Shown here in pieces: positions 9,888 through 30,615 of a stretch of DNA of 36,174 nt. Location of the stretch: positions 1-36,174 of the forward strand of contig CAZFFM010000001.1 of the NCBI GenBank assembly GCA_964517425.1, read 5' to 3'. Both the position numbers and the translations under genes were made by a program. Origin of the DNA: an uncultured Ardenticatenales bacterium. GTDB taxonomy: Bacteria; Chloroflexota; Anaerolineae; Ardenticatenales; JAADHH01. Within the stretch, counting starts at the first letter, position 1; each line of letters begins with the position of its first letter. Under the pieces are notes generated by a model. It worked only from the letters and a program-made list of their open reading frames with translations. It did not search any database and was not told where the DNA came from.

Positions 9888-9936
9888 CGTGTTGCGTGCT
9901 GCGTATTGCGTCGCTCCACGCTCACCGCTCCACGCC
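9888..9936. repeat. Heptanucleotide array, 7 in-register units
   Basis: The units are cgtgttg cgtgctg cgtattg cgtcgct ccacgct caccgct ccacgcc, in the purF leader. Confidence 0.8.
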
Positions 9937-9982
9937 ATCTCTACTTGGTGAAGGTCTCCTGACCAAGCCCTGTTCGGTTCGG

Positions 9983-10642
9983 TCAGGAGACCTCGGCGAG
10001 CGAGCGGAGAGATCTCCCGATAGAATCAATCATTGCTGTGGCCTTTGCTCGAAACTCGTTGGCTCTCATCTCTGGACACATCTTGGCCAATGCCCCCAAC
10101 GATAAACTCTTTTGGTCAAGCTGTTCGATATCTAATCGAGTCATCAAGTAAAATCGCCACTGATCGAGGTCGAGTGCATCCCATCTATCAGGGTCTTTCT
10201 CAATTTGCACGCAAAACACGTAAATGTCCGCGTTGTACGTTGCAGTACGAGCATACTGATTCGTCCGCGTATTCAACCTCCGTCCCTTCAAGCCGGCGAA
10301 GACGATACGTGAGGGTTGCTTCTGTGCCCAGGCCTGCAAATACGCAGAAGTCTTGACTTCGATCCTTACTCCGCCTCGTGCCACCAGATCACACTCGCCC
10401 CAAGAATCACGCATGCTTAACGGTATGTCAAGCAACTTGGCAACCATCCACTCAGCAAAGACGCCGCGAACGTCGTTCATCTGTAAGTTGCTGAAAGCCC
10501 AACTCCAGAAATCCAGAACTGTGACATTTTCTAAAGACTCAATCGAACTATGACTATGTAGTCGTTCATTCCCCGTGAACATAACGAGTGGTGTAGTCCC
10601 TTTTGCATCTCTTTGAAAGTCGCTACTTCGAAACTCGATCAT
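9983..10642 (-). CDS. Hypothetical protein with a PD-(D/E)xK nuclease-like motif
   Basis: 219 aa and AT-richer than its flanks. The candidate catalytic core is FAEWMVAKLL ... ECDLVARGGVRIEVKTS (D-x10-E-x-K). The start lacks its own SD, but a 6-codon mini-ORF with GGAGGG ends in an ATGA overlap on it. Confidence 0.55.
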   Translation of the reverse strand: MIEFRSSDFQRDAKGTTPLVMFTGNERLHSHSSIESLENVTVLDFWSWAFSNLQMNDVRGVFAEWMVAKLLDIPLSMRDSWGECDLVARGGVRIEVKTSAYLQAWAQKQPSRIVFAGLKGRRLNTRTNQYARTATYNADIYVFCVQIEKDPDRWDALDLDQWRFYLMTRLDIEQLDQKSLSLGALAKMCPEMRANEFRAKATAMIDSIGRSLRSLAEVS

Positions 10643-10788
10643 TCTGCTGACCAGAACATCTGCCCAAACCCTCCAAAATACCTATCGCAACCTGGCGGAG
10701 TTTGCCGACCGGCCCAAATAGCCACAACAGCACACGATTCTTTCGCGATATCTCCTGGTTACAGAGTATCTCTCTGCTCCATTTCGTG

Positions 10789-11484
10789 TTAGCAACCATA
10801 CTTCTCAAAATGCGCCTTATTTCTGCCGATAGGTGAGTCAAAGACGATGGACGTAAACTCATTTTGGTCAAGATTTTCCATCACCAATGCCAACCCATCA
10901 AGAGCCTGAATAGCCTCCTTCGCTTTCTCCAAGAGAGTGTGGCTAAACCGGAACTTGTTTTGCGCAGCATCACTTACTACAACGTCAGAAGATCTTTTGT
11001 CCCACACAAGAAACTTAACTGACTTATAGTGGACAACGTGGTTTCGATTTCTTATGAGTTTCCTTAACAATTGATATGCATTTTCGTCCTTGGGAAAATC
11101 TTTTCGTGTTACCAATCTCGTTATCACGACCCATTTGCTAACAACATCCAGTTTGTCAAGGTGTGCCTTTACAAAGCTATCAGTAAGGTTCCGGGCGGCA
11201 TAATCGTAGATATAACTCTCTACGGCCAAGGCAGAGAAAACGATAGCGATTAAACAACTATCGTCTTCCTCATGCTGAAGGGGTGACATTTCTAGATGTT
11301 GAAAGGCCGCTGCTTGATCACCTGTCAAGGTGTCTAGCTCCTTGCTTAGACTGTTTAGCTTCTCCCTGCACACCAAGGCATAGTTAAGCTTCCTACGAGC
11401 TATTCTTGCATAACTCGAAGCTGCAGTAATACGCGCATCCCATTGTGGATTCACCTCAATCTGGTCGTCTGACGTCTTGATCAT
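10789..11484 (-). CDS. HEPN-like protein (canonical RNxxxH motif), hypothetical
   Basis: The start at ATG 11484 (MIKTSDD) has GGAGGG upstream. The longer ORF to 11649 overlaps purE in another frame. The motif is LRKLIRNRNHVVHYK, preceded by the helix IAIVFSALAVESYIYDY. The gene is AT-rich and overlaps the purE 3-prime end by 29 nt. Confidence 0.6.
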   Translation of the reverse strand: MIKTSDDQIEVNPQWDARITAASSYARIARRKLNYALVCREKLNSLSKELDTLTGDQAAAFQHLEMSPLQHEEDDSCLIAIVFSALAVESYIYDYAARNLTDSFVKAHLDKLDVVSKWVVITRLVTRKDFPKDENAYQLLRKLIRNRNHVVHYKSVKFLVWDKRSSDVVVSDAAQNKFRFSHTLLEKAKEAIQALDGLALVMENLDQNEFTSIVFDSPIGRNKAHFEKYGC

Positions 11485-12028
11485 CCCTCCCGAGCTGCCC
11501 ACCCTGATCCCGCTGCATGGCCGCCACCCGTTCGCGGATCGCCTCGTCGGCCAGACCGAGCATCTTCGCGGCGAGCAGGGCCGCGCCGGCCGGCGCCAGC
11601 ACGACGGCCGGGGCCACGCCCGACGGCATACGCAGCGAGGAGAAGACATCCACCATCGCCCAGTCCGGCGACAGCGGCGGACAGGCGATGACCGGCGCAG
11701 TCACGTTCGCGTCCACCAGCCCGGACAGCGCGTTCGACCGCCCGGCCACGGTGATGTACACCTTGCGGCGCGGGTCTGCCTCGTACGCCGCCAACATGTC
11801 CAGCAAATGTCGCACGCTCTTGTGCGCGGAAGCCACCCGCAGCTCGCACGGCACACCGAACTCCTCTAGCGCCGCCGCGATCTGCTCCCCGTGCTCCCGA
11901 TCCGACACCGACCCCATGATGATGGGAACGATACAGCCGTTTCGATTTTGGATTTTGGATTTTGGATTTTGGATTTTTCGATTCCCCGCTTCCTGATACG
12001 CATCGCGTGTTGCGTAATCCGTTGACAA
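11456..12028 (-). CDS. purE: N5-carboxyaminoimidazole ribonucleotide mutase
   Basis: Conserved core IVPIIMGSVSD...ASAHK...AGRSNALSG. The only canonical in-frame start upstream of the core is the TTG at 12028, inside a heptad array, so the start is uncertain. Confidence 0.85.
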   Translation of the reverse strand: MSTDYATRDAYQEAGNRKIQNPKSKIQNRNGCIVPIIMGSVSDREHGEQIAAALEEFGVPCELRVASAHKSVRHLLDMLAAYEADPRRKVYITVAGRSNALSGLVDANVTAPVIACPPLSPDWAMVDVFSSLRMPSGVAPAVVLAPAGAALLAAKMLGLADEAIRERVAAMQRDQGGQLGRDDQDVRRPD

Positions 12029-12062
12029 TTGATCACTGATCGTTGACCAATTGACAATTGCC
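11944..12062. repeat. Composite heptad array, 17 in-register units (119 nt)
   Basis: (gattttg)x4, gattttt, ... gtgttgc gtaatcc gttgaca attgatc actgatc gttgacc aattgac aattgcc. The array fills the whole nadB-purE junction and extends into the purE ORF. Confidence 0.85.
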
Positions 12063-13634
12063 TTACTCCCGGTAATGACACCCCATACTCACCTTGTTCT
12101 CCCAAGCCGCAGAGGCGACGACCAACGCCGCTTGCACGGCATTGCGCAGGCCGACCAGCCCGTCGGTGAGCCGCGTCACCCGGTAAAACTGCTCGATTCC
12201 GGCCCGCAGGTTCCGCAGGTCGCGCAAGGCGCGTTCCAGGCGCGGGGTGGTACGCACCAGGCCGACATAGTTCCACATGATGTGCTGAATCGAGCTCATG
12301 TCCTGGGCGATGAGCGCGGGGTCCGGCTCCTCGTAGCCGGCATCGCTCCAGGGGGGAATCTCGGTCGAGTCGGGAACGGGGCTATCCACCAGCGTGCGGC
12401 GAACGTGCTCCGCCGACCGGTATCCCCACACCAACCCTTCGAGCAGCGACGTACTGGCCAGGCGGTTGGCACCATGCACGCCCGTACAGGCAACCTCGCC
12501 CACAGCGTACAAACATTCGAGCGTCGTCTGCCCCCATTCGTCCACCCATACCCCCCCACAGGCATAATGGGCCGCCGGCACAACCGGCACCAGATCACGC
12601 GTGATGTCCACACCGTAGGCCAGACAATCCTCGTAGATGTTCGGAAAATGCTCCAGAATTGTCTGCTCTGCCATGTAGGAACGCAGGTCCAAATAGACAT
12701 GGGAGACGTCGTGGAGCAACATCTCCTGGTGGATACTCCGCGCTACCACATCGCGCGGGGCCAGGTCTTGCCACTCCGGATCGTATTTCTGCATGAACGG
12801 CTCGCCGTCCGCGTGAACCAGCCGTGCACCCGCCCCACGCACAGCCTCGGAAATCAAAAAGTTCGGCGCGTTCTGGTGGGCAAAGGTCGTCGGGTGAAAT
12901 TGCACGAATTCGTTGTTGATCACCCGCGCGCCGGCACGATAGGCCATCGCCAGGCCGTCGCCCCGTGCGCCGGGCGGATTGCACGTCCGCAGGTAGAGTT
13001 GGCCCAGGCCGCCGGTCGCCAGGATCGTCTTCTTGGCCATGCAGCGCACCACCTGCCCGCTCTCCTGGTCGAGCACGTAAGCACCCACACACGACCGTGG
13101 GTCGTACACCACCAGACGGTTGAGCGAATGGTGCGACGGCGTCAACAGGTCTACGGCCGTGTGCCCGGCCAGCAAAGTGACTTGTGGGTGACTCTGTAAC
13201 TTGTTGAGCAAGGCGATCTCGATGGCCCGGCCGGTGGCATCGGTGGTGTGGACAATGCGCGGCATAGCGTGGGCACCCTCGCGCGCCAGCGACAGCGTGC
13301 CGTCCGCAGTCCGGTCGAAGGGCACACCGACCCTTTCGATCAAGATGTCCCGCACCAACTGCGGCCCCTGTTCCGCCAGAATCGCCACCGCCTTCGGATT
13401 GCAATGGCCGGCGCCGGCCCGGAGCACATCTTCCTCCCGCAACGCCGGCGAATCGTCAACACCTTCGTGGACAATCCCCCCTTGCGCATACAGCGTGTTC
13501 GATTCTTCCGGTTCCCGCGCGCGCGTCACGACCGTGACCGCCACGCCGGCATCGGCAAGCTGCAACGCCGCCACGCCGCCGGCAATGCCACAGCCAATGA
13601 CCAGCACTTCCGTTTCCAGACACTCTCCTGTCAT
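12063..13634 (-). CDS. nadB: L-aspartate oxidase
   Basis: FAD-binding motif VLVIGCGIAGG, plus GGLGQLY and HYxCGG. The start is either ATG 13634 (AGGAG 7 nt upstream) or ATG 13649 (ATGA overlap with the nadA stop). Confidence 0.9.
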   Translation of the reverse strand: MTGECLETEVLVIGCGIAGGVAALQLADAGVAVTVVTRAREPEESNTLYAQGGIVHEGVDDSPALREEDVLRAGAGHCNPKAVAILAEQGPQLVRDILIERVGVPFDRTADGTLSLAREGAHAMPRIVHTTDATGRAIEIALLNKLQSHPQVTLLAGHTAVDLLTPSHHSLNRLVVYDPRSCVGAYVLDQESGQVVRCMAKKTILATGGLGQLYLRTCNPPGARGDGLAMAYRAGARVINNEFVQFHPTTFAHQNAPNFLISEAVRGAGARLVHADGEPFMQKYDPEWQDLAPRDVVARSIHQEMLLHDVSHVYLDLRSYMAEQTILEHFPNIYEDCLAYGVDITRDLVPVVPAAHYACGGVWVDEWGQTTLECLYAVGEVACTGVHGANRLASTSLLEGLVWGYRSAEHVRRTLVDSPVPDSTEIPPWSDAGYEEPDPALIAQDMSSIQHIMWNYVGLVRTTPRLERALRDLRNLRAGIEQFYRVTRLTDGLVGLRNAVQAALVVASAAWENKVSMGCHYRE

Positions 13635-13645
13635 CTCGTTCTCCT

Positions 13646-14692
13646 TCATCCGATGGCGATCATGCGCTCGACCGACCGCGCTGCACGCACCCGGACATCT
13701 TCCGGCACCTCTATCACGTAGCGGTTGTACTTCAGCGCGTTGAGCGTATCCTCCATCGTGATCTGGTTCATGTGCGGGCAACGCACGCTGCACAAGCGCA
13801 ACATCTCCTTGTCCGGATTCTCTGCCGCGACGTTGTCGCCCATCGCACACTCGGTGAGCAGCAGGTAGCGGGGTGCCGCCGTCTCTTCGACATAGCGGAT
13901 CATCGCCGAAGTGCTCCCCGAGAAATCGGACGCTGCCACCACTTCCGGGCTGCACTCCGGGTGGGCCAGGATCACCACGTCGGGAAACTGGGCCCGCACG
14001 TTGGCGATGTCCTCGGTGGTGAACTTTTCGTGTACCTCACAGCGGCCCTGCCAGCCGATGATTTGATAATCCAGGTCTACGTCGGCTGTGCCAGCTCCCT
14101 TCGGAATTTTCGTTGGGAAAATGATGTGCTTACCGGTCTCCTGGGCCACGTTCCGTGCCAGGTACTCATCGGGGACGAAGATCACCGTGTCGCTGTGCAG
14201 TGACTCGACCACGGCCGCCGCATTGCTCGACGTGCAGCAGATGTCACACTCCGCCTTCACATCGGCATAGGTGTTGACGTAGGTGACGACCGGCACACCG
14301 GGGAATCGCGCCCGCAGGTCGCGCACATCCTCGGCGGTGATACTTTCCGCCAACGAGCAGCCCGCTTTTTCCGCCGGCAACAGCACGGTCTTCTGCGGGT
14401 TCAGAATCTTGGCCGTCTCCGCCATGAACCTCACCCCACAGAAGACGATGATGTCCTTGTCCGTCTCGGCCGCTTTGCGACTGAGACCCAGTGAATCCCC
14501 CTTGTAATCGGGAATCGAGTAGTACAACGCCGGTTCCATGTAATTGTGCCCCAAGATCACCGCGTTCTTTTCGACCTTGAGGCGATTGATTTCAACGGCC
14601 AACTCCGCTTTGTAGCGCAGCTCAAAATCGGGAACCACGTCATGGAGTTTGGCCTTCATGTCTTGATAGACTTCTTCCACTTCCTCTGACAT
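13646..14692 (-). CDS. nadA: Quinolinate synthase
   Basis: 348 aa resembling NadA along the full length (ILGHNYM, VFCGVRFMAE, ILAHPEC). Confidence 0.9.
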   Translation of the reverse strand: MSEEVEEVYQDMKAKLHDVVPDFELRYKAELAVEINRLKVEKNAVILGHNYMEPALYYSIPDYKGDSLGLSRKAAETDKDIIVFCGVRFMAETAKILNPQKTVLLPAEKAGCSLAESITAEDVRDLRARFPGVPVVTYVNTYADVKAECDICCTSSNAAAVVESLHSDTVIFVPDEYLARNVAQETGKHIIFPTKIPKGAGTADVDLDYQIIGWQGRCEVHEKFTTEDIANVRAQFPDVVILAHPECSPEVVAASDFSGSTSAMIRYVEETAAPRYLLLTECAMGDNVAAENPDKEMLRLCSVRCPHMNQITMEDTLNALKYNRYVIEVPEDVRVRAARSVERMIAIG

Positions 14693-14716
14693 TTTTCCTG
14701 TCCTCTCGTACGAACC

Positions 14717-14749
14717 AGACCTGACAGGTTTTGAAAACCTGTCAGGTCT
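14717..14749. promoter_or_regulatory. Perfect 33-nt palindrome (16-bp arms) overlapping the nadC stop codon
   Basis: agacctgacaggtttt-g-aaaacctgtcaggtct. It sits in the 49-nt nadC-nadA spacer and is not followed by a U-run. Confidence 0.6.
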
Positions 14750-15587
14750 TAGCTTCTACCACCAAACTAACATCCAACGCCCGTGCCGAATGCGTCAGCA
14801 TCCCTACGGAAATATAGTCCACGCCGGTCGCGGCCACTGCGGCGACGTTCTCCAGCGTGACGTTGCCGGATGCTTCGAGCGGCACCCGGCCGCCGGCCAG
14901 TCGCACCGCCTCGGCCATCTCGTCCGGGGTCATGTTGTCGAGCAGAATGCGGTCCACGTCCAGACCAATGGCTTCCCGCAATTCAGCCAGCGTGCGTACT
15001 TCAACCTCGATGGCTCGTTTGCGCTCATCTCCTTTCCGCACCCGTTGTACCGCCTCGCTGACTCCGCCAGCAGCGGCGATGTGATTGTCCTTGATCAGCA
15101 CCATGTCGTACAGGCCGAAGCGGTGATTCTGCCCGCCGCCTAGCCGCACGGCCCATTTGTCGAAGAGTCGCAGGCAGGGGGCCGTTTTGCGTGTATCGAG
15201 GATGACGGCGGACGTCCCCCGCACGGCATCCACAAAGCGCCGCGTGAGCGTCGCAATCCCGGACATGCGTTGCAAGAAGTTCAGCGCCACCCGTTCGCCG
15301 CTGAGCAGTGCCCGCCCCGGGCCGGCGATCGTGGCAATCGTTCGGCCGGCCGGCACAGAATCACCGTCGGCGACAAGCGGGGTGATCCGCACCCGCGCAT
15401 CGAGTTGCGCAAAGGTCAGCCGTGCCACCTCCAGTCCGGCAATCACGCCGGCCTCCTTGGCCACGAACTCGCCGGCGAGCATCGCGCCGGCCGGCACCGT
15501 GCAGTCCGTCGTCACATCCCCGTCGCCGATGTCCTCGGCGAGGGCGTGGCGGATGATCTGCGAAATTTCAGGTAGTCTGTCGTCCAT
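14742..15587 (-). CDS. nadC: Nicotinate-nucleotide diphosphorylase (carboxylating)
   Basis: QPRTase motifs (EDIGDGDVTT, RKTAPCLR, DNHI). The start at ATG 15587 (MDDRLPE) has GAGG upstream. The ORF-track start at 15650 lies in a heptad array. Confidence 0.9.
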   Translation of the reverse strand: MDDRLPEISQIIRHALAEDIGDGDVTTDCTVPAGAMLAGEFVAKEAGVIAGLEVARLTFAQLDARVRITPLVADGDSVPAGRTIATIAGPGRALLSGERVALNFLQRMSGIATLTRRFVDAVRGTSAVILDTRKTAPCLRLFDKWAVRLGGGQNHRFGLYDMVLIKDNHIAAAGGVSEAVQRVRKGDERKRAIEVEVRTLAELREAIGLDVDRILLDNMTPDEMAEAVRLAGGRVPLEASGNVTLENVAAVAATGVDYISVGMLTHSARALDVSLVVEAKT

Positions 15588-15606
15588 TATGCCTCGCTGT
15601 GTAACC

Positions 15607-15718
15607 CGTGTTGCGTATTGCGTATTGCGTATTGCGTGTTGCGTTTTCACGTTTCACGTCTTTGCGTTCCCTATCTCTATCTCCACCCTCTATCTTCCAC
15701 CGTTCATCATTCATCACA
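15607..15718. repeat. Heptad array, about 16 in-register drifting units
   Basis: cgtgttg (cgtattg)x3 cgtgttg cgttttc acgtttc acgtctt tgcgttc cctatct ctatctc caccctc tatcttc caccgtt catcatt catcaca. Confidence 0.8.
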
Positions 15719-15800
15719 TTTTGCATTCATCGGTTGCTCTACAGGCTTGCCAGCTCGAACGCCCGACCATTAGCCCGCAAGCGGCGATTTCAATTGCTCA

Positions 15801-16160
15801 CTACATGGGCAAGTATAGGTATTCTGGTCCCTTTTCGGCCAACAACGCTTCCCGCGTTCCTTGAATCCGCTCGCGCAGTCCGCGTACAAACTCCGGCGGA
15901 TTGCGCTGCTGCTCCTGCCAAGATTCTTCGGAAAACGCTCGCCACCGGGACAGGTAAGCATCCACCTCTTCTTGGTAATGCAGATAATAGGTAATGGTCG
16001 CGTAGACCTGTTCCAGGGTCAGCGTGCGATAGCGCGCCACGATCTCCTCAGGGCTGGCGACTGTCAAGTAGTCATCCAACACTGTCTCAATACCCACCCG
16101 TGTCCCTTTGATGCGAATGTCATCCGGGCTCACAAAGTCAAAGTAACTCTCCATCACCAT
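15801..16160 (-). CDS. DUF433 domain protein (orphan antitoxin-like)
   Basis: The start at ATG 16160 has GGGAGGTGG upstream. The motif is IRIKGTRVGIETVLDDYL..SPEEIVARYRTLTLEQVYATITYY. The gene overlaps the purC 3-prime end by 23 nt and has no PIN/DUF5615 partner. Confidence 0.7.
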   Translation of the reverse strand: MVMESYFDFVSPDDIRIKGTRVGIETVLDDYLTVASPEEIVARYRTLTLEQVYATITYYLHYQEEVDAYLSRWRAFSEESWQEQQRNPPEFVRGLRERIQGTREALLAEKGPEYLYLPM

Positions 16161-17100
16161 ATTCCACCTCCCAATCGTCTCCGGCTGTCGCCGGCTCAAA
16201 CTCCTTCCCGATGATTCTTTCGTAGACGGCGATGTAACGCTGGGCCGCCTGTACGGCCAGCGCCGGCGGCATGGGCGGCGGTTCCCCCGCGCCGCGATAG
16301 CCGCGTGCCGCATACCACAAACGGACGAACTCTTTGTCGAAGTTTTCCGGCTCCTCGCCGGCGGCCAACTGGGACTCGTAGCTATCGGCTCGCCAGAAGC
16401 GGCTGGAATCGGGCGTGTGAATCTCGTCAATCAGGGTCAGTTGGCCGTCGAGATCGCCGAACTCGTATTTCGTGTCCACCAGGACGAGGCCGCCCCGCGC
16501 GCAAACTTCTGTGCCCCGTGCGAAGAGGGCCAGGGCCACGCGCTGCATCTCCGCCCACGTATCAGCGGGCACGAGACCGCGCGCCACCACCTCGTCGCCG
16601 GTGATGCGCTCGTCGTGCGCGCCGCCGGTCGCCTTCGTCGTCGGCGTGATCAGCGGCTGCGGCAATCGCTCGTTCTTGCGCAACCCGTCGGGCAGGCGGT
16701 GGCCGTACAGCTCGCGCACACCCCGTTCGTAGTGATACCACAGGCTCGTCGTCGTCACTCCGGTGATGTAGCCGCGCACGATCACCTCCACCGGGTAGGG
16801 CCGGCAGACGTGCACGAGCGCAGCGTTCGGCTGCGGTACGTCCAGCAGGTGGTTGGGCACAATGTCCGCCGTCTGCTCGAACCAGAAGGCGGCTAGTTGA
16901 TTGAGCACCTGCCCTTTGTACGGCACCAAGCCCAGCACGCGATCGAACGCACTCAGCCGGTCGGTGGTGATCAGCAAGCGCCGGCCCTCCGGCAGGTCAT
17001 ACCAATCGCGCACCTTGCCGCGTCCCCGCTCGCCTAGCGCCAGGTCTACGCCGGCGAGGGCGTGCGGTAAGGCTTCGTGCAGTTGTGATTTGGTTAGCAT
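16138..17100 (-). CDS. purC: Phosphoribosylaminoimidazole-succinocarboxamide synthase
   Basis: 320 aa, long-form SAICAR synthetase (GKVRDWY, TDRLSAFD, LVDTKYEFG). Confidence 0.9.
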   Translation of the reverse strand: MLTKSQLHEALPHALAGVDLALGERGRGKVRDWYDLPEGRRLLITTDRLSAFDRVLGLVPYKGQVLNQLAAFWFEQTADIVPNHLLDVPQPNAALVHVCRPYPVEVIVRGYITGVTTTSLWYHYERGVRELYGHRLPDGLRKNERLPQPLITPTTKATGGAHDERITGDEVVARGLVPADTWAEMQRVALALFARGTEVCARGGLVLVDTKYEFGDLDGQLTLIDEIHTPDSSRFWRADSYESQLAAGEEPENFDKEFVRLWYAARGYRGAGEPPPMPPALAVQAAQRYIAVYERIIGKEFEPATAGDDWEVEYGDGELL

Positions 17101-17111
17101 GGGTCGTCTCC

Positions 17112-17146
17112 GTTGAGCGGTGAGCGTGGAGCGTGAGACGTGGAAC
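17112..17146. repeat. Heptad array, 5 units, inverted orientation
   Basis: The units are gttgagc ggtgagc gtggagc gtgagac gtggaac, in the purC leader. Confidence 0.7.
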
Positions 17147-17163
17147 GAGCATGCCGTTTCAGA

Positions 17164-17568: not shown

Positions 17569-17858
17569 TTCGACCGATCTTCCTGTCGTTGCTGATACAC
17601 ATACTCGATGAAGTCATCAACTGACTCACTTTCGGGCCAAAAATCTACCCGTAAGCTCGCAATGTCCGTGAGTGGTTCGATTTGCTGCGTTTGCACGAAC
17701 TGTTCGAGCGTTCGCGGTTGCCAAAAATCTCCCTCTGGCCCTACAGCAGGATGATAGCTGCGATACAAAGAGTGAGAGATAACCCGTATAAGATTCAACT
17801 GTTCCAGTGGCGATAGTTCTTGCGTTGCTTCAATCATGGTTTGTAGTTTTGTGGTCAT
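17565..17858 (-). CDS. Antitoxin partner of VapC (family not recognised)
   Basis: 97 aa, translationally coupled to vapC, with GGGAGGA RBS and its own promoter and operator upstream. Confidence 0.65.
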   Translation of the reverse strand: MTTKLQTMIEATQELSPLEQLNLIRVISHSLYRSYHPAVGPEGDFWQPRTLEQFVQTQQIEPLTDIASLRVDFWPESESVDDFIEYVYQQRQEDRSN

Positions 17859-21101: not shown

Positions 21102-21117
21102 TGACCAGGCACGAACC

Positions 21118-24862: not shown

Positions 24863-25131
24863 GCGGCTGCCCCTGCAACGAAATTGGCACGTTGCAGATT
24901 GCTTTGCTTCACGCGTAACGACAAACCACAAAAGCGCAAAGGCACGAAGGAAAAAACTTTTTTGATACTTTGTAGCTTGGTGACTTTGTGGTGAGAAATC
25001 CCGTTTGGGTTCGGTTTGGGTAGGGGGAACATGACCGCGCGGGAAGACAACCGCTTCCTGGCAACAGTTGACAGATGGCGATGGTTCCAGAGGGACAGGT
25101 TTCCTCCGGAACCATAATTTGGCAAGATCAT
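24859..25131 (-). CDS. Possible 90-aa upstream ORF translationally coupled to purSL
   Basis: The ATG at 25131 has AGGAGG 7 nt upstream, and the stop forms an ATGA overlap with the purSL start. The product is basic, low-complexity and unrecognisable, and the ORF runs across repeat copy B. Confidence 0.25.
   Translation of the reverse strand: MILPNYGSGGNLSLWNHRHLSTVARKRLSSRAVMFPLPKPNPNGISHHKVTKLQSIKKVFSFVPLRFCGLSLRVKQSNLQRANFVAGAAA
24918..24999. repeat. MITE-like element, copy B (degenerate left arm)
   Basis: The core gcaaaggcacgaaggaaaaaac (24936-24957) and the right arm gactttgtggtgagaaat (24982-24999) match copy A at 1121-1202. Confidence 0.5.
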
Positions 25132-25347
25132 GGTGCCAACCTCCTGTATGGTTTGAAACCGATTTTGCCGGCCTTCACCTTCGAGGCAATGCTCCAGACT
25201 CGCCTGGTCTGACTTCACGCCACAAACGGGGTGGCAAAAAGAAGTATAGCACAGTTTGTCAGAAACAGCAATTGCAGCCGACGACGAACCTGCCAACGGA
25301 GAAAGCAGCTTCGCCGGCAGCTCGCAGCAACGAACCGGCCATGCGAT

Positions 25348-25376
25348 TTGCCTATCGGGGGAAACGCTGGCATAAT
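25348..25376 (+). promoter_or_regulatory. Promoter TTGCCT-17-CATAAT, 6 nt upstream of the mutY ATG
   Basis: The -35 is at 25348-25353 and the -10 at 25371-25376. The ATG is at 25383 with no SD, so a leaderless mutY transcript is plausible. Confidence 0.45.
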
Positions 25377-25382
25377 GGCCGC

Positions 25383-26453
25383 ATGAACGAACGTGAGTCT
25401 CAAATTCGCCGGCGACTGATGGATTGGTACGACCGGCGGCAGCGGGATATGCCTTGGCGTGGCGCAGGTGATCCGTACGCTGTCTGGGTCGCCGAGGTCA
25501 TGCTCCAGCAGACCCGTGTGGAGACGGTGCGGCCCTACTACCGTCGCTGGATGGAACGTTTCCCGACGGTGTTCGAGTTGGCCGCTGCTGCCACCGACGA
25601 CGTACTGAAGGCATGGGAAGGCCTGGGCTATTACGCACGCGCCCGCAATTTGCACAGGGCGGCGCAACAGCTTGTCCGCGACCACAGGGGAAAGCTTCCC
25701 GACAACTGGGATGACCTGCGAGCGCTGCCGGGGATCGGTGATTACACCGCCGGCGCGGTGCTCAGCATTGCCTTCGGCAAGCCGTTTCCGGCCGTAGATG
25801 GCAACGCGCGGCGTGTACTCGCCCGCCTCTTCGCCATAGACGCCCCCATTCGCCGCTCCGCCGTCCAGCGGCAGATGTACGACCTCGCCGCCCGCATGAT
25901 CCCCGCCGAGCGGCCCGGCGACTTCAACCAGGCGCTGATGGACCTGGGTGCAGAGGTCTGCCTGCCCCGTACGCCCGACTGCGATTCGTGCCCTCTGACC
26001 GGAGAATGTCTGGCTTTCCAGCAGGACCGGCAAGCCGATTTTCCCTACCGGAAGACACCTCACAAACTGCCCCACTACGAAATGACGGCCGGCGTTATTT
26101 GGGGGCCGCAACGCAAGGTGTTGATGGCACGCCGGCCCTGGAAAGGTTTGCTCGGTGGACTTTGGGGCTTCCCCGGCAGCAAACAGATCACGGGCGAAAC
26201 CCTGGAGGCCAGTTTGCGCCGGGGAATCCGTGCGACGCTTGGCGTGCGCGTTGCGATAGAAGAACCCATCGTGACCATCGAGCACGCGTACACCCACTTT
26301 CGCATTACACTGCACGCATTCCATTGCCGGTATCTGAGCGGAGACCCACAAACTATCGGTTGTGCAGAATGGAAATGGATAGTACCTGAAGAAATTCAGA
26401 AACTAGCGCTGCCACGCACGGACCAAAAAATCTTAAAGGCGATAGATAGGTGA
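25383..26453 (+). CDS. mutY: A/G-specific adenine DNA glycosylase
   Basis: HhH-GPD core (VWVAEVMLQQTRV, LPGIGDYTAGAV), an Fe-S cluster loop (CLPRTPDCDSCPLTGEC) and a C-terminal MutT-like domain. The start at 25383 is preferred over the ORF-track start at 25068. Confidence 0.9.
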   Translation: MNERESQIRRRLMDWYDRRQRDMPWRGAGDPYAVWVAEVMLQQTRVETVRPYYRRWMERFPTVFELAAAATDDVLKAWEGLGYYARARNLHRAAQQLVRDHRGKLPDNWDDLRALPGIGDYTAGAVLSIAFGKPFPAVDGNARRVLARLFAIDAPIRRSAVQRQMYDLAARMIPAERPGDFNQALMDLGAEVCLPRTPDCDSCPLTGECLAFQQDRQADFPYRKTPHKLPHYEMTAGVIWGPQRKVLMARRPWKGLLGGLWGFPGSKQITGETLEASLRRGIRATLGVRVAIEEPIVTIEHAYTHFRITLHAFHCRYLSGDPQTIGCAEWKWIVPEEIQKLALPRTDQKILKAIDR

Positions 26454-26486
26454 ATAATAGCGTACTGTTGCAGCACACTTCTACGT

Positions 26487-26515
26487 TTGCCTTTGAGGGG
26501 AGGATGTATTATAAT
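26487..26515 (+). promoter_or_regulatory. Promoter TTGCCT-17-TATAAT upstream of lepB
   Basis: The -35 is at 26487-26492 and the -10 at 26510-26515, about 150 nt upstream of the lepB start. Confidence 0.5.
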
Positions 26516-26663
26516 CTAAGGAGTCAATATGAGCGTATGCTCCGCTTTCCTGATGTTGGATTGTTGGGGTAATGCGAAACGTGACGTTTGAGGACTGCCA
26601 TCTAGCGACTGACGTCTGGCGTCTGAAGCAGATTGGACGCATGAGAATAAGGAGACAAGTATC

Positions 26664-27491
26664 TTGAGTTTGACTGACGAGGATCGTCGAATGGCGGCGA
26701 GCGAAACGGACGACAATCCGTTGATAACTACTTCGACAGAAGGGGCGTTCCCGGCTGTACCTGGCGATGGACAAGTTTTGAACGAAGAAGAAGCGACTTT
26801 TCAGGGGGTCGAAATCCCGGTTTCTGAGTGGGCCTGGACTCCCGCTATTCCGACAAACTCCGACACCTATACGCCTGTGCCCGTCTCTGTGGATTGGGGA
26901 ACAACGCCCTCTACCCCCCCAGACGCAACAGAACCAAAGCCATCGTTGTGGGATACGATACGCCCGCTGCTTCGCGAGACCGTAGAGACGCTCATCCTAA
27001 CCGCGATTATCTTTGTCCTGATCCGTTCCGTGGCCCAAAACTTTCGCATCGAAGGGTACAGCATGGAGCCGAATTTTCACGACGGCCAATATCTCATCGT
27101 GAACAAAATCAGCTACCATCTTCACGATCTGGAACGCGGAGACGTCATTGTTTTCCAGTATCCCCGCGCTCCAAAGCGAGATTTCATCAAGCGCGTCATC
27201 GGCCTGCCCGGAGAAAAGGTAGAAATTCGACGCGGTACGGTCTACGTCAACGACGAGCAGATGAAGGAGCCGTATGATCCCAACCCGGGGACGTATTCTT
27301 GGGGGCCACAGACCGTACCGGAGGGAGAGTACTTTGTTCTGGGAGACAACCGCAATAATTCCAGCGACTCGCACACGTGGGGCATGTTGCCGCGTGGCAA
27401 TGTGGTGGGTAAAGCCTGGGGCATCTATTGGCCGCCAAGTACCTGGGGCTTAGTCCAATACTTGCGCCCCAGCCTTGCGGCAGTGCAATAA
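26664..27491 (+). CDS. lepB: Signal peptidase I
   Basis: S26 motifs GYSMEPNF, GDVIVF, RDFIKRVIGLPGE and VLGDNRNNSSDS. The start is TTG 26664, with AGGAG 9 nt upstream. Confidence 0.9.
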   Translation: MSLTDEDRRMAASETDDNPLITTSTEGAFPAVPGDGQVLNEEEATFQGVEIPVSEWAWTPAIPTNSDTYTPVPVSVDWGTTPSTPPDATEPKPSLWDTIRPLLRETVETLILTAIIFVLIRSVAQNFRIEGYSMEPNFHDGQYLIVNKISYHLHDLERGDVIVFQYPRAPKRDFIKRVIGLPGEKVEIRRGTVYVNDEQMKEPYDPNPGTYSWGPQTVPEGEYFVLGDNRNNSSDSHTWGMLPRGNVVGKAWGIYWPPSTWGLVQYLRPSLAAVQ

Positions 27492-27503
27492 CGTGGACGT
27501 TCT

Positions 27504-27629
27504 GATTTTGGATTTTAGATTTGCGATTTTGGATTGGTGGGAAACGTGGTACGTATTGCGTGATGCGTGTTGCGTCTGACGCATCACGCATCACGTTTTA
27601 CCTGACACGTGACACTTGACACCTGACAC
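27504..27629. repeat. Composite heptad array, 18 in-register units (126 nt)
   Basis: gattttg gatttta gatttgc gattttg gattggt gggaaac gtggtac gtattgc gtgatgc gtgttgc gtctgac gcatcac x2 gttttac ctgacac gtgacac ttgacac ctgacac. Confidence 0.9.
27559..27600 (+). terminator. Intrinsic terminator of lepB, built from inverted heptads
   Basis: An 18-bp stem pairs cgtgatgcgtgttgcgtc with gacgcatcacgcatcacg, with one mismatch. It is followed by TTTT and lies 68 nt after the lepB stop. Confidence 0.6.
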
Positions 27630-27656
27630 CTTATTTCCATAACAGCAGCGGGAGCC

Positions 27657-28394
27657 GTGATGGACGAAGCAAGTATCCGTGCCCTTGTCCGGCGTGTACT
27701 GGATGAAATGGGAGACTCAAAGCCCACCGGGCCAATGAATGATGGCAGAGGGGAACCGCTTGTTTCTGCTCCCCTCGCGCTGGTCACCCAAGCGGACGTG
27801 GAAGCGTTGCCGCCGGGCGGGCAACTGCTCATCGCCGCGAAGGCCATCATCACGCCGCTGGCCCGAGACGTGGCCAAAGAGCGGCGCGTGACTCTCGTTC
27901 GTACGGCGGCGCCGGCGCAACCGGAAGACCGCGCGCCGGAGCGGCCCGCCCGCGTCGCCATCGGCGCGGACCACGGCGGGTATGCGCTGAAGGAAATCTT
28001 GCGCCGTTACTTGCAAGACCAAGGCTACGACGTGCGCGATTGCGGCACGCACGGCACGCAGTCGGTGGACTACCCTGACATCGCTTTTCAGGTCGCTCGC
28101 CTGGTCGCCGAAGGGGCGGTGGACCGGGGCATCATGATCGATGGCGCGGGAATCGGCTCCTGCATGGCAGCGAACAAAGTGCCCGGCGTGCGGGCCAGCC
28201 TCTGCTACGACGTTTCCAGCGCGCGGAACGCCCGCGAACACAACGACGCCAACGTCCTCACCCTGGGGGGCAAGCTGATCGGCGAAGCATTGGCCAAGCA
28301 AATCATCAAGACCTGGCTGGAGATGCCCTTCGCCGGCGGTCGCCATGCCGGTCGCGTGGAAAAGATCATGGCTGTGGAGAAACAATGGCAGTAG
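27657..28394 (+). CDS. rpiB: RpiB/LacAB-family sugar-phosphate isomerase with an approximately 100-aa N-terminal extension (BMC-targeted)
   Basis: RpiB core ([14 protein letters not shown] ... [10 protein letters not shown] ... HNDANVL). The N-terminal amphipathic helix [15 protein letters not shown] resembles a BMC encapsulation peptide. Confidence 0.85.
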
Positions 28395-29257
28395 ACATCG
28401 AGCAACTGGTCGCCCTGATCACCAAAGAGGTCATGGTCAAGCTGCGCACGCAGGAGGCGGAAGAGCGCGGCGACCTGCCGGTCTTCCGCTGCTACGACTG
28501 CAGCCAGGGGCGGTGTGCCTGGACCTGCACCGACAAGGTGCGCCGGGTGATGGATGCCGGCGCGACACGCATCGCTGCATCGCTCGGTGCCGGCGGCGTG
28601 GCCACCGACATTGCCCGCATCATTGATCACACGCTGCTCAAGGCGGACGCCACGCCAGCGCAGATCGCCCAGCTTTGCTACGAGGCACAGAAGTACGGGT
28701 TCGCGTCCGTCTGCATCAACCCCGGCTACGCTGCGCTGGCCGCGCAGTTGCTGGCCGGTTCGCCGGTGAAGGTCTGCACCGTTGTGGGGTTTCCGCTGGG
28801 TGCCACCAGCACGGAGGCCAAAGTGGCCGAGACGGTGCAGGCGCTGGACGACGGGGCCACGGAGATTGACATGGTGATCAACATCGGTGCGCTGAAGGCG
28901 GGCGACTACGAGCTGGTGGAGCGAGACATCGCCGCCATCGTGCGTGCGGCACACGGGCGGGGCGCACTCGTCAAGGTGATCATCGAGGCAGCGCTGTTGA
29001 CCGACGAAGAGAAGGTGAAGGCGTGTACGCTGGCCAAAGCGGCGGGGGCCGACTACGTGAAAACCTCGACCGGTTTTGGGCCGGGCGGCGCGACGACACA
29101 CGACGTGGCCCTCATGCGCCAGACGGTGGGCGCGGGTATGGGTGTCAAGGCGGCCGGCGGGATCGGCACCCTAGAGAAGGCGCGCGAGATGGTCCATGCC
29201 GGCGCCACACGCATCGGGGCCAGCGCCGGTGTGCGCATCGTGGCACAGGGGACGTAG
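28385..29257 (+). CDS. deoC: Deoxyribose-phosphate aldolase with N-terminal encapsulation-peptide-like helix
   Basis: DERA core ([36 protein letters not shown] Schiff-base Lys region, VKAAGGI). The N-terminus is [17 protein letters not shown]. Confidence 0.9.
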
Positions 29258-29299
29258 GGCGGGAAGCATGGATCGCCAAGATGAGAACAGGAGTGTCCA

Positions 29300-29578
29300 G
29301 TGCGTGCAGTCCCTCCGTATCTCTTGACGGATCATGCACGAATGGAGATGGCTCGCCGCCAGATCAAAGAGTCAGATATTGCTAGAATCTTGGCCTTACC
29401 TGAGCAAACTGAAAGGGTACGTGAGGGGCGCATGGTCTACCAATCTCGGATAAAGTGTGGAAATCCTCCTAAACTACACCTGCTCAGGGTATTTGTGGAT
29501 GTCGACAGGGATCCCCCGGAGGTCGTAACGGCATACCGGACCAGCAAGGTTAAAAAGTACTGGAGAACTGAACAGTGA
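29300..29578 (+). CDS. DUF4258-like toxin
   Basis: 92 aa with the motif LTDHARMEMARRQIKESDI. The GTG start has AGGAG 6 nt upstream, and there is a GTGA overlap with the next gene. Confidence 0.65.
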   Translation: MRAVPPYLLTDHARMEMARRQIKESDIARILALPEQTERVREGRMVYQSRIKCGNPPKLHLLRVFVDVDRDPPEVVTAYRTSKVKKYWRTEQ

Positions 29579-29781
29579 GAGTCATTTACGACCCCGCGAC
29601 AGATACGTTGACGGTCATCCTGGCTGAAACGCAAGTCGCTGAAAGCGACGAGGATAAACCCGGCGTGATCCTAGACTACGATGCGGGAGGAAGTCTTGTA
29701 TCTCTCGAGATTCTTGACGCCTCTCACCGTGTGGCAGTACCAACCGGCATAGAGTATCAGGTCATGCAAAGAGTCGCATAG
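29575..29781 (+). CDS. DUF2283-like antitoxin
   Basis: 68 aa. YDPATDTLTVIL ... GVILDYDAGGSLVSLEILDAS is the typical DUF2283 pattern. Confidence 0.65.
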   Translation: MRVIYDPATDTLTVILAETQVAESDEDKPGVILDYDAGGSLVSLEILDASHRVAVPTGIEYQVMQRVA

Positions 29782-29805
29782 GGAATGTAGTCGCACACGC
29801 ACGCG

Positions 29806-29874
29806 ATGGTACACGCCGGTGCCACGCGCATCGGGGCCAGCGCCGGTGTGCGCATCGTGGCGCAGGGGGCGTAG
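29806..29874 (+). pseudogene. Duplicated deoC 3-prime end, copy 2
   Basis: Encodes [22 protein letters not shown]-stop. It shows 63 of 69 nt identity to 29189-29257, and 5 of the 6 differences are synonymous. Confidence 0.85.
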
Positions 29875-29892
29875 CGCGAAGGGAGAAGGTGG

Positions 29893-30123
29893 ATGACCAG
29901 TACAGCGATCACACAACAACTTAACGAACAAATTGTACAACTTCCGCTTGGGCTTCAACAAAGGGTTCTTGATTTTGCACAAGCGCTGGTGATTTCTTCT
30001 CCCAAAGGAATCCCGGGAAAGCAACTGCTTCGCTTTGCAGGCACCATGGACCATGATGATATTCGGGCAATCGAACAAGCCATCGAAGCCGGGTGCGAGA
30101 AAGTAGACGTGAATGAATGGTAG
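29893..30123 (+). CDS. Antitoxin partner of VapC (family not recognised)
   Basis: 76 aa, with GGAGAAGG RBS and an 11-nt overlap with the PIN gene. Confidence 0.6.
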   Translation: MTSTAITQQLNEQIVQLPLGLQQRVLDFAQALVISSPKGIPGKQLLRFAGTMDHDDIRAIEQAIEAGCEKVDVNEW

Positions 30124-30502
30124 ATTCCTCTTGGATACAAATGTAATCATTGCGCTTTTTGCGGGAGAGGCCGGCCTTCGGAACCAATTGGAGCAGGCAA
30201 AGGAAGTCTTTGTGCCCACGATTGCACTAGGAGAACTCTACTTCGGAGCTGGAAAGTCCGGACGAGCAAAAGAGAATCTGGGACGGCTGGATGAATTTGC
30301 AGTTAGCGCTTCTGTCCTTGCCTGTGACTTGGGCACGGCGAGAGAGTACGGCGTCATTAAGAACTCATTACGAGAGAAGGGCAGGCCCATCCCCGAGAAT
30401 GACATTTGGATCGCGGCCATTGCCAGGCAGTACGGGTTGACTCTGGTCACCCGAGATGCGCATTTTGACGGAATCAGTGAACTGGCAATGGAGGCCTGGT
30501 AG
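30113..30502 (+). CDS. vapC: PIN-domain toxin, VapC family
   Basis: 129 aa with FLLDTNVIIAL, ENDIWIAA and LVTRDAHF. Confidence 0.85.
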   Translation: MNGRFLLDTNVIIALFAGEAGLRNQLEQAKEVFVPTIALGELYFGAGKSGRAKENLGRLDEFAVSASVLACDLGTAREYGVIKNSLREKGRPIPENDIWIAAIARQYGLTLVTRDAHFDGISELAMEAW

Positions 30503-30543
30503 TCCACGCCGGTTCCACGCGCATCGGGGCGCAGGGGGCGTAG
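30502..30543 (+). pseudogene. Duplicated deoC 3-prime end, copy 3 (with in-frame 24-nt deletion)
   Basis: Encodes VHAGSTRIGAQGA-stop and starts at the last base of the vapC stop codon. Confidence 0.8.
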
Positions 30544-30548
30544 GGCGA

Positions 30549-30604
30549 ATGTCAATTGTCAACGATCAACTTTCAATGGCTAACGTAACACGTAACACGC
30601 AACA
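30549..30604. repeat. Heptad array, 8 units, inverted relative to 11944-12062
   Basis: atgtcaa ttgtcaa cgatcaa ctttcaa tggctaa cgtaaca cgtaaca cgcaaca. The array runs directly into the eutN RBS (GAGGAG). Confidence 0.8.
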
Positions 30605-30615
30605 CGAGGAGCCCC

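Follow-up and report, generated by a model that had tools for sequence, protein, structure and literature searches.

The spacers between the genes of the window (the whole stretch of 36,174 nt analyzed here) harbor in-register tandem arrays of heptanucleotide units, in which several unit families are chained together in a recurring order with a polarity relative to the flanking stop and start codons. The arrays belong to the heptanucleotide long simple sequence repeat (long-SSR) or short tandemly repeated repetitive (STRR)-like class, in a lineage where that class was not described before. We favor, with moderate confidence, the explanation that they are lineage-specific simple sequence repeats (SSRs) born of slippage in DNA under low constraint, with the placement of individual units filtered by selection. 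As to origin, growth, shrinkage and change of the arrays by in-register replication slippage or unequal exchange can be regarded as shown or strongly supported. Mutated units are re-amplified, giving blocks of related units that drift in 7-nt phase, and the arrays build up where constraint is low, namely in intercistronic spacers, 5' leaders, the tails of open reading frames (ORFs) and one interdomain linker; within coding DNA, only lengths divisible by three survive.

As to use, selection would sort the units by their position on the mRNA-sense strand. Those rich in G (AGCGTGG, GGGGCGT) would be kept just after stop codons, and A/C-rich, G-poor units (AAYACGC, AAAATCC, ACGTAAC, CTGACAC) just before the Shine-Dalgarno sequence or start, where a leader unable to fold would keep the initiation region open and might serve as an S1-type standby or enhancer site. 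Inverted sub-arrays would form a 3' stem-loop (lepB, nadB), probably terminating or stabilizing the transcript, and the recurring family order would reflect compositional polarity rather than a mobile composite element. The indel-free arrays, the amplification of blocks, the low-constraint location and the turnover between relatives are signatures of slippage-driven microsatellites, while the argument for selection on leaders draws on orientation statistics, lack of structure and above-neutral conservation at two arrays.

That the 7-nt period is real follows from several lines of analysis, comprising Tandem Repeats Finder (TRF), direct reading of nine regions, cutting into 7-mers at the positions of the original prediction, and a lag-k identity scan. 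That prediction, made from the sequence alone, had been of nine in-register heptamer arrays, and all nine are present by TRF and direct reading, at or within a few bases of where it had placed them. TRF reports period-7 rows with 0% indels at 9888-9935, 11940-11977, 15607-15659, 18171-18255, 19626-19659, 19708-19779, 24531-24566, 24602-24655, 27504-27631 and 30583-30606; the exception is the array at 17111-17144, which appears as a period-14 row with 9% indels. In the window, lag-7 identity covers 693 nt (11.2%) of non-coding DNA as opposed to 118 nt (0.4%) of coding DNA, and lags 4-6 and 8-12 cover only about 0-1%. An excess of period-7 signal over shuffled DNA, which had been proposed as a check, is found in the 28 spacers compared: the signal covers 681 nt there, whereas 300 dinucleotide-preserving shuffles average 4.1 nt (sd 9, max 45). 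The claim that the register survives drift of the unit sequence also stands: in the drift zones, which are the 476 nt of the originally described arrays not included in strict sub-arrays, lags 7, 14 and 21 give identities of 52%, 47% and 46%, as against ~26% at all other lags. In the regular stretches, neighboring units differ by just 1-2 bases. It is this coherence at lags 7, 14 and 21 alone that is informative about register; a comparison across families (GGATTTT vs CCACGCT) offered no meaningful test, in-phase similarity being no better than that at other shifts.

The arrays span 35 to 154 nt in length and are less pervasive than had been thought. The statement that spacers consist “almost entirely” of arrays is true of two or three (array share 94% in purB|purQ, 89% in purE|nadB and 76% in lepB|rpiB); most others lie at 30-56%, vapB|purB lies at 15%, and among the spacers of at least 10 nt only 13 of 30 carry the period-7 signal, the other 17 being free of it. 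Direct reading does bear out that the arrays adjoin ribosome-binding sites and stop codons: they touch Shine-Dalgarno sequences and stops, and in two cases the stop codon is supplied or overlapped by the array. Surprise at finding them beside housekeeping genes was misplaced, as such a position is published for the heptamers of Beggiatoaceae, Nostoc and Xanthomonas (PMC4679880; bioRxiv 10.1101/2022.06.06.494920; PMC4692102). Heptanucleotide SSRs are biased toward intergenic DNA because their unit length is not a multiple of three, and the intragenic arrays found here measure 21, 36 and 54 nt. The observation is robust, then, and its earlier interpretation was broadly right in kind, if wrong on a composite element, on coverage and on the location of one array.

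Assembly artefact had been named from the start as the finding that could undo the prediction. The metagenomic source and the proneness of repeats to mis-assembly speak for artefacts of low-complexity reads, but we give that explanation practically no credence. Four independent assemblies (JGI 3300023444, JGI 3300023548, SRR9849951 and SRR9849936) are identical in the arrays that each covers, and one base, outside any array, is the only difference among their contigs. The flanking reading frames are intact, and the arrays, at 35-154 nt, are no longer than typical short reads (a general figure rather than that of these samples). An independently assembled related metagenome-assembled genome (MAG) has arrays in the matching spacers.

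This closest genome is a Chloroflexota MAG (JAADHH010000029, hereafter L002), whose purB product shares 95% amino acid identity with that of the window. The other purB relatives found reach at most 69% identity and are nearly all annotated as Anaerolineae, Caldilineae or other Chloroflexota; judged by its sequence, the source of the window is an Anaerolineae-related Chloroflexota bacterium known from metagenomes. L002 is syntenic with the window, ~93% identical over aligned genes and 85% identical at 4-fold degenerate sites. Its units and copy numbers differ from those of the window in the leader of nadC, at the tail of purB and in purQ|purB. On the other hand, the stretch that follows the nadB stop (a hairpin plus ACGCAAC units) is identical at 56 of 57 non-coding columns by hand count, for which a hand binomial calculation against the 85% neutral level puts P at about 0.001. 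Both genomes carry five AAAATCC units in the purE leader, where identity is about 94%, again by hand count, and the purC leader array of L002 matches that of the window throughout its 3' 27 nt. Since the nadB, purE and purC stretches lie above 85% while others differ, some arrays are constrained and others turn over quickly.

Rapid turnover of units and copy number in several spacers is equally what one would expect if the arrays were a pure mutational by-product, functionless, with their composition and order owed to strand-asymmetric mutation or chance. Such a reading also accommodates the spilling of arrays into ORF tails and a coding linker and the 17 of 30 spacers that are array-free, and polymerase slippage is the literature's default explanation for heptamer SSRs (PMC4679880; PMC4692102). 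We consider it a credible minority position, though one at odds with the conservation of the nadB 3' hairpin and the purE leader array above the level of 4-fold sites, with the recurrence of unit families across loci and lineages, and with the compositional and orientational evidence that follows.

Read on the plus strand, the families are GGATTTT; GCGTRTT; CACGTTT; the group CCACGCT, CACGCCC and CACGTGC; and the group TTGACAA and TGACACC. The original prediction that the order of sub-families recurs was well founded: all seven multi-family arrays of the window fit an order running from GGATTTT through GCGTRTT and CACGTTT to either of the last two groups, and the one comparable multi-family array in L002, upstream of purE, has the identical order. 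At 30549-30606 the reverse-complement order stands on the plus strand, before a plus-strand gene; this array resembles the one downstream of nadB in L002, so that its orientation follows the gene. The usual layout in mRNA sense is stop, G-rich units (AGCGTGG, GGGGCGT), AAACGTG, AAYACGC, AAAATCC, Shine-Dalgarno, start. Across the nine array-bearing co-directional spacers, the sense strand has a G-C of +0.14 toward the stop and of -0.12 toward the start, where A-T is +0.15. The ten array-free spacers display no such trend, and this confinement of the G-rich to A/C-rich polarity to array-bearing spacers is difficult to reconcile with a functionless by-product. As for AAAATCC itself, three of its four arrays in the window are directed toward a start codon or an N-terminus, immediately so for purB and with the array set against the N-terminus for purE and the second PurS domain. 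Freedom from stop codons does not hold as a general rule for the units, given that AAACGTG, ACGTAAC, CTGACAC and GGGCGTA all contain stop triplets.

A recurring order might instead mean that the composites are copies of a mobile mosaic element of ~120 nt, akin to miniature inverted-repeat transposable elements (MITEs), repetitive extragenic palindromic (REP) sequences or bacterial interspersed mosaic elements (BIMEs), and a discrete composite of about that size had indeed been proposed. Besides the order shared by seven arrays and L002, there is a 36-nt identity between 11940-11975 and 24531-24566 that includes a non-repeat end; accessory cassettes differ between the window and L002 precisely at array-bearing spacers, as where a 2.9-kb insert splits the nadB-purE array of L002 (further differences concern a DUF433 gene and hypothetical genes); and inverted arrays flank the vapBC cassette. 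However, all-against-all BLAST of the spacers reveals no unique core, terminal inverted repeats or target duplications, and the similarity from spacer to spacer is at unit level only and at most 36 nt long. Lengths vary from 35 to 154 nt, several of them unequal between orthologous spacers of the two genomes, and the lengths of 119 and 126 nt that had suggested a discrete element are merely 17 and 18 hand-counted units, hence multiples of 7. Nor is there a REP-associated tyrosine transposase (RAYT) or other transposase domain among the window ORFs scanned with Pfam. The resemblance to the BIME/REP elements of enterobacteria lies in intergenic mosaics of ordered and oriented sub-motifs, in the position at gene 3' ends or between cistrons and in stem-loops that can stabilize mRNA; REP sequences, in contrast, are imperfect palindromes of ~35-40 nt spread by RAYT, whereas the units here are 7 nt long, mostly direct and without element boundaries. 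A mobile element is for us an improbable explanation.

Further orientational evidence comes from outside the window, from metagenome loci collected by an exact scan for (GGATTTT)3. This returned at least 80 loci, and the figures given here apply among the matches listed. Their G+C content (n=80) ranges from 0.30 to 0.71, and in many of them further heptamer arrays (0.16 per kb) or pairs of inverted (GGATTTT)n…(AAAATCC)n are present. In 16 of 82 instances the AAAATCC strand lies within 11 nt of the ATG of a long ORF, as against 2 of 82 for the opposite strand (Fisher p = 7e-4). Such an orientation-specific link between (AAAATCC)n and ATG across unrelated contigs weighs against a functionless by-product. 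Often there is no space for a Shine-Dalgarno sequence between array and ATG (e.g. …AAAATCCAAAATGG…). A Pfam scan of 10 of the 16 abutting ORFs found eight recognizable genes and two without a match, the eight being argG, der/engA, a PP-loop tilS-like gene, an ABC ATPase, an ABC-2 permease, an inositol monophosphatase, a DUF255 thioredoxin-like gene and an epimerase; for most of these, the Pfam domain begins within ~30 residues of the N-terminus. One contig with the AAAATCC-ATG junction is from Planctomycetota (Der 86% identical). Upstream of purB, too, the picture is of one sense: of 77 other Chloroflexota loci, 4 show an array in the 160 nt before the gene, in each case A/C-rich in sense, so that with the window the count is five of five lineages, again a poor fit to functionless repeats.

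The idea that the last ATC of AAAATCC sits preferentially in frame with the ATG was dropped, as this holds for 6 of 16, about the one-third chance level (hand-derived). Separately, at fourteen of the metagenome loci the repeats are inverted, with (GGATTTT)n and (AAAATCC)n set apart by a loop of 20-60 nt, and in several of these the start codon lies at the 3' foot of a predicted A-U-rich stem. A stem of this kind could act as a translational switch, possibly a temperature-sensitive one.

Not every array is a leader or a trailer. The array at 24535-24653, earlier described as intergenic, turns out to lie inside a continuous ORF of 974 aa (21938-24862, minus strand) that is opened by an ATG at 24862 and matched by a JGI gene call of identical length. 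In one frame this ORF runs through a first PurS domain, the array, a second PurS domain and PurL, and inspection of the sequence found neither ATG, GTG or TTG nor a Shine-Dalgarno for the second PurS domain. Anaerolineae homologs (39-44% identical, 99% query coverage) have the PurS-PurS fusion too, with a short linker; relative to these, the linker of the window has ~27 extra residues, which are exactly the array (…ARGAWSVERGAWSVK…IQNPKSKIQNRN…). Its two sub-arrays, 36 nt (24531-24566) and 54 nt (24602-24655), are each divisible by three, and the linker array is, on this reading of the frame, truly translated. The tandem PurS-PurS arrangement recalls the double PurS-like N-terminal domain of large PurL. 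Elsewhere, purB has after its conserved …APERA an array-encoded tail of 10 aa in the window and 27 aa in L002, and purQ has a 21-nt (three-unit) duplication, AEGVERG/AEGVG, that is not in L002. Several frames of the arrays are without stop codons, and gene callers therefore extend or fuse ORFs through them. This is a practical point for annotation, and at least one array, that of the PurS-PurS linker, is indeed translated.

The start of purE poses a related puzzle. No canonical start or Shine-Dalgarno is found near the conserved N-terminus (…NGCIVPIIMGSVSD; strand IVPIIMGS) in either the window (11929-12062) or L002 (13100-13225). In L002 an in-frame TGA precedes the Met by 29 codons, and the absence of ATG, GTG and TTG from this interval forces a non-canonical start for purE. 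Both genomes have a Shine-Dalgarno-like GGAAGCNGGGGAA 6-9 nt before the in-frame ATC that heads the AAAATCC array, and the distance from this ATC to the Met is 19 codons in the window and L002 alike. The ATC is thus a candidate for, and possibly is, the start codon of purE. The peptide NPKSKIQNRN, which would be encoded in the purE array region, also precedes the second PurS domain.

Folding of the sense-strand RNA sets one spacer apart. The earlier view that inverted sub-arrays create strong hairpins is upheld for lepB-rpiB, where the minimum free energy is -49.9 kcal/mol (z = -3.85, 0 of 200 shuffles folding as well) and GCGUGAUGCGUGUUGCG pairs with CGCAUCACGCAUCACG in a G+C-rich stem of ~17 pairs, ~65 nt after the lepB stop. 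It fails as a general property, the other 8 of 9 arrays having z-scores of -0.84 to +1.56 and so folding either no better than shuffles or worse. A second, smaller hairpin directly after the nadB stop arises from a palindromic TTGTCAA/CAATTG module. The lepB hairpin (27558-27598) has the stable stem-loop expected at a 3' end; only UUUU follows the stem, short of a U-tract of at least 5, and a terminator consensus scan did not report it. That scan, over 9800-29700, returned 13 terminator-like sites against a shuffle expectation of 16.7, and no array other than weak stems that abut GGATTTT arrays. Rfam finds no family in the whole window at gathering thresholds.

Beside these structures stand two further observations. 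In nadC|nadA, a perfect inverted repeat of the window (GACCTGACAGG…CCTGTCAGGTC at 14693-14741) corresponds in L002 (7487-7569) to a direct (CTGACGA/GACAGAT)n heptamer array with a related unit, and arrays and hairpins seem to interconvert. A G-quadruplex motif (at least four runs of G3+, with loops of 1-7 nt) occurs only in the array at 18171-18255, on the minus strand, with matches at 18219-18260; this array is G-quadruplex-capable by motif, its units GGGGCGT/GGGCGTA differing from the known GGGAATC and GGGGAYT.

The lack of structure in start-proximal arrays invites comparison with Rho-utilization (rut) sites, which are unstructured stretches with C in excess of G. C-rich, G-poor arrays could serve as such sites, imposing polarity when the downstream gene goes untranslated, and the start-proximal arrays are in fact C>G and unstructured over 40-100 nt in sense and occupy spacers between co-directional genes in the pur and nad clusters. 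Yet the stop-proximal arrays are G-rich, the reverse of rut, AAAATCC contributes two C per unit only, and in metagenome contigs the arrays abut the starts of possible first cistrons. We regard a rut function as unlikely, much as we do a mobile element.

Several observations weigh against slippage filtered by selection, and they are best taken together. Length polymorphism is not seen among the four consensus contigs, though at the consensus level this is a weak test. The sample sizes within the window are small, and the roles of the arrays as leaders and terminators are ones that we infer. The array at 24531-24655 has the clearest full family order and yet lies in a coding linker, where the logic of leaders and terminators should not apply, a circumstance that favors a mutational or copy-paste cause. 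Two arrays run opposite to the orientation rule: the purC leader has CCACGCT in sense, and the AAAATCC/GGATTTT half of lepB-rpiB is T-rich in sense. Finally, CACGTTT, AATACGC and GCGTGAT recur in distant Chloroflexota, and AAAATCC recurs in a Planctomycetota contig and in unassigned metagenome contigs, which slippage alone does not predict, and this recurrence could point to a sequence-specific reader or generator.

One version of such a reader would be a protein that binds single-stranded RNA or DNA with a 7-nt footprint (a cold-shock OB-fold protein, S1 or another factor), the arrays being its platforms and each unit family recruiting a factor of its own for termination, processing or translation. 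Unit families do recur at many loci and in distant Chloroflexota: a few heptamer-rich loci elsewhere (a Litorilinea aerophila MAG, a Caldilineaceae MAG and Anaerolineae W31_78) re-use CACGTTT, AATACGC and GCGTGAT. A CACGC core is common to several families, in both orientations, and the arrays are unstructured and therefore accessible. There is precedent as well, in that CspB, by the account given in a review, binds heptamer repeats with one protein per heptamer (PMC4679880), and a partner protein has been postulated for the Nostoc heptamers (bioRxiv 10.1101/2022.06.06.494920). Against this, no candidate protein is found in the window, free drift of units by 1-2 bases fits a sequence-specific reader poorly, the same families also occur in translated sequence, and no Rfam match was obtained. 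A dedicated binding protein strikes us as doubtful, if less so than rut sites.

A bolder proposal, about which we are at least as hesitant, would combine several of these threads. The heptamer families would form a modular, orientation-dependent cis-code across Chloroflexota and Planctomycetota. Within it, (AAAAUCC)n would be a Shine-Dalgarno-independent initiation leader, maybe initiating at its own in-frame AUC, an idea that arises because L002 purE is without a canonical start between the in-frame stop and the conserved N-terminus. The CACGC-type and G-rich families would be read by heptad-periodic proteins that bind single-stranded DNA or RNA and set termination, processing and coupling, and unit number would be an evolvable tuning knob.

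How dense such arrays are elsewhere was gauged by counting perfect heptamer arrays of at least 19 nt. By this measure the window has 0.22 arrays per kb and L002 0.26, as against 0.015 for the 79 other purB-relative loci (mostly Anaerolineae).

The signatures of slippage also match what is described for related systems. Heptamers are an over-represented SSR class in intergenic DNA, according to summaries of the Mrázek survey (PMC4679880; PMC4692102). In Xanthomonas, heptamers occupy shared spacers across species with extensive variation in length and sequence (Rehm 2015, PMC4692102). The long SSRs of Xanthomonas (GGGAATC) and Nostoc (GGGGAYT) are like the arrays here in that relatives share spacers and vary in length and sequence, in that inverted arrays form stem-loops, and in that one array here (18171-18255, minus strand) is G-quadruplex-capable; they are unlike them in that most units here are not G-quadruplex-forming, several families share a spacer and the lineage is new for the class. 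The features that define long SSRs are found, namely an excess over composition, an intergenic bias and variable orthologous spacers (the purE leader and the nadB hairpin being conserved instead).

The likeness to STRR sequences, which had been drawn earlier, is one of kind. The STRRs of Calothrix, Anabaena and Nostoc are likewise 7-nt tandem units in few to ~20 copies, with several families per genome, concentrated in non-coding DNA beside genes and also within operons, and dispersal of this sort is found at window scale (13 of 30 spacers, 11% of non-coding DNA) and in 15 kb of L002. Actual STRR membership does not hold: STRR1 (CCCCAGT), STRR2 (TTGGTCA) and STRR3 (CAACAGT) have 0 tandem dimers here on either strand, and the host is a member of the Chloroflexota, not a heterocystous cyanobacterium. 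The arrays here, moreover, join several families in register in a polar order that recurs, and some of them are translated.

Closest to the proposed leader role are the TAACTGA repeats of marine Beggiatoaceae, some cyanobacteria and Bacteroidetes, for which a translational role was proposed (MacGregor 2015, PMC4679880), and the Nostoc TTTTGAA/TTCAAAA repeats near start codons, where deletion of the repeat altered reporter output (bioRxiv 10.1101/2022.06.06.494920). As with the AAAATCC arrays, these are orientation-specific, directly upstream of starts, scattered across phyla and mixed with other heptamers. The unit differs, however, TAACTGA itself occurring once in the window with 0 tandem dimers, and the leader arrays here belong to longer polar composites, which extend over the post-stop region as well. 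Within the Chloroflexota, satellites derived from (GATAGRA)n are scattered in the intergenic DNA of Chloroflexus aurantiacus (Subirana & Messeguer 2019, PMC6749651), and a trace of GATAGRA is present here at 15675-15701 (TCTATCT). That organism belongs to the Chloroflexia and has one dominant unit, with no polarity or order described, whereas the Anaerolineae-related lineage here has at least five families. A search of the literature for (GGATTTT)n or (AAAATCC)n returned just unrelated primer and sequence matches, and we did not find in the open literature the chaining of families in polar order, arrays translated as a linker or tail, or the cross-phylum (AAAATCC)n-ATG junction.

To our knowledge, the function of bacterial heptamer repeats is still not known thirty-five years after the STRRs. 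Heptamer repeats are the most over-represented long SSRs in bacteria, and the window provides a compact natural test set for them, with at least five families with polarity and with L002 to distinguish conserved arrays from those that turn over. The AAAATCC leader unit abuts real starts without a Shine-Dalgarno in at least one other phylum; if its leader function is true, it would be a simple, portable translation element and would bear on Shine-Dalgarno-poor initiation in under-studied phyla.

The host has a G+C content of about 60%, and the genes of the window, identified by Pfam, are on the minus strand purD, purF, purE, nadB, nadA, nadC, purC, purB, purQ and the purS-purL ORF, and on the plus strand mutY, lepB, rpiB, deoC, a eutN-like gene and an aldehyde dehydrogenase (parts of a microcompartment locus). 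Between them are small accessory cassettes (PIN/VapC, DUF433, DUF5615, HepT/MNT, DUF4258 and a DNA methylase, all by Pfam).

Two arrays, located by TRF and Pfam, lie outside the range originally described. At 82-113, 3.9 copies of TACTCCN lie past the stop of a glycosyltransferase gene (119-1132, minus), on whose sense strand they are of GGAGTAA type and G-rich. At 8410-8429, 2.9 units of CGCTCCA lie 5 nt past the purF stop (8435-8437) and read AACGTGG AGCGTGG in sense. The composite in the purF 5' region (9888-9936, TRF and Pfam) consists of GCGTGTT-type units at 9888-9911 followed by CGCTCCA at 9912-9935; in sense (minus strand) it is AGCGTGG-type and then ACGCAAY-type, with a non-repeat leader of ~70 nt, GGAGG and a TTG start at ~9817. 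The nadB-purE spacer composite (11940-12062) is made up of (GGATTTT) x5.4 (11940-11977), then GCGTGTT-type units (~12004-12020), and as its third part (~12021-12062) a palindromic TTGACAA/CAATTG module, which forms the hairpin directly after the nadB stop; the order in sense is hairpin, ACGCAAC, (AAAATCC)5, purE.

Upstream of nadC (ATG 15589-15587), the composite at 15607-15718 comprises (GCGTATT/GCGTGTT) x5.4 at 15607-15644, (CACGTTT) x2 at 15645-15659 and, at 15675-15701, TCTATCT/CCACC repeated with a period of 13-14; the register does not persist beyond ~15660, and the L002 ortholog differs in units and copy number. Five units at 17111-17146 lie between the vapC stop and the purC Shine-Dalgarno (ATG 17100), their sense strand being C-rich and of CCACGCT type. 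The most regular array is (CACGCCC/TACGCCC) x12.1 at 18171-18255, in sense (minus) GGGGCGT/GGGCGTA; at 18226-18255 it encodes the end of purB, namely a tail of 10 aa that is not conserved, and the stop codon. In the purQ-purB spacer composite (19626-19780; purQ TAG 19776-19774, purB ATG 19617), the order in sense is TAG, (AGCGTGG/AGCGGAG)n, AAACGTT/AAACGTG, (AAAATCC) x5, GGAGGCCC and the purB ATG, and an array-like 21-nt periodicity runs on into the 3' coding end of purQ (19781-19846). The translated composite (24531-24655, minus) is the linker between the two PurS domains of the ORF at 21938-24862.

On the plus strand, the lepB-rpiB spacer composite (27504-27631) begins with (GGATTTT) x4.6, the sole GGATTTT array of the window with the T-rich strand as sense, and continues with GCGTRWT inverted against ACGCATC units, the hairpin at 27558-27598, UUUU and then (CTGACAC) x4.6 before the rpiB Shine-Dalgarno. 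The array upstream of the eutN-like gene (30549-30606, plus; ATG 30616) runs from TTGTCAA-type units through (ACGTAAC/ACGCAAC) x3.4 into a GAGGAG Shine-Dalgarno; this is the nadB-purE family order on the other DNA strand. The array matches the nadB-downstream array of L002 at 80% and does not differ among the four assemblies. G-rich arrays directly after stops, as read in sense, include GGGGCGT/GGGCGTA x12 at 18171-18255 and GGGGCGCAG x2.2 at 30526-30545.

Several minor observations concern the cassettes. Between purB and purC (17101-18255), the window has vapBC where L002 (5120-5620) has a gene of ~125 aa, whose product looks like a four-helix-bundle protein of the type encoded in 23S rRNA intervening sequences (IVS) and which has a paralog between purQ and purB in L002 (3250-3800). 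In both genomes, AGCGTGG and CCACGCT arrays in inverted orientation enclose the purB-purC cassette, which looks as though it had entered an inverted-array hairpin at its loop. A segment of 388 nt (window 20623-21010; L002 1884-2271) is 99.2% identical, with flanking genes at 80-93%; it sits inside the oppositely oriented purQ/purL cassette, made up of orf172 and adjoining NTase/HepT-like ORFs, and suggests a recent exchange of cassettes between the window and L002 lineages. In the microcompartment locus, a DNA methylase and a 376-aa ORF lie between 92%-identical eutN segments (30753-30905 and 33264-33416), and DUF4258 and DUF2283 genes lie between 89%-identical 81-nt copies of the deoC 3' end (29181-29261 and 29798-29878); these partial gene duplications look like the footprint of cassette insertion into that locus.

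The cumulative GC skew has its minimum at 22-24 kb, and gene orientation changes from minus to plus at 24.9-25.3 kb, in the largest spacer. Six one-mismatch matches to the DnaA box were found against 3.9 expected, without a cluster, so that a replication origin is not supported, and the skew may simply follow the gene strand. Lastly, the Uma2|purD spacer (6073-6136) has inverted arrays with a unit of 9-10 nt, CGCAGATAA x2 and TTATCTGCG x3 separated by a 19-nt gap, a design like that of the inverted heptamer arrays with a different period.

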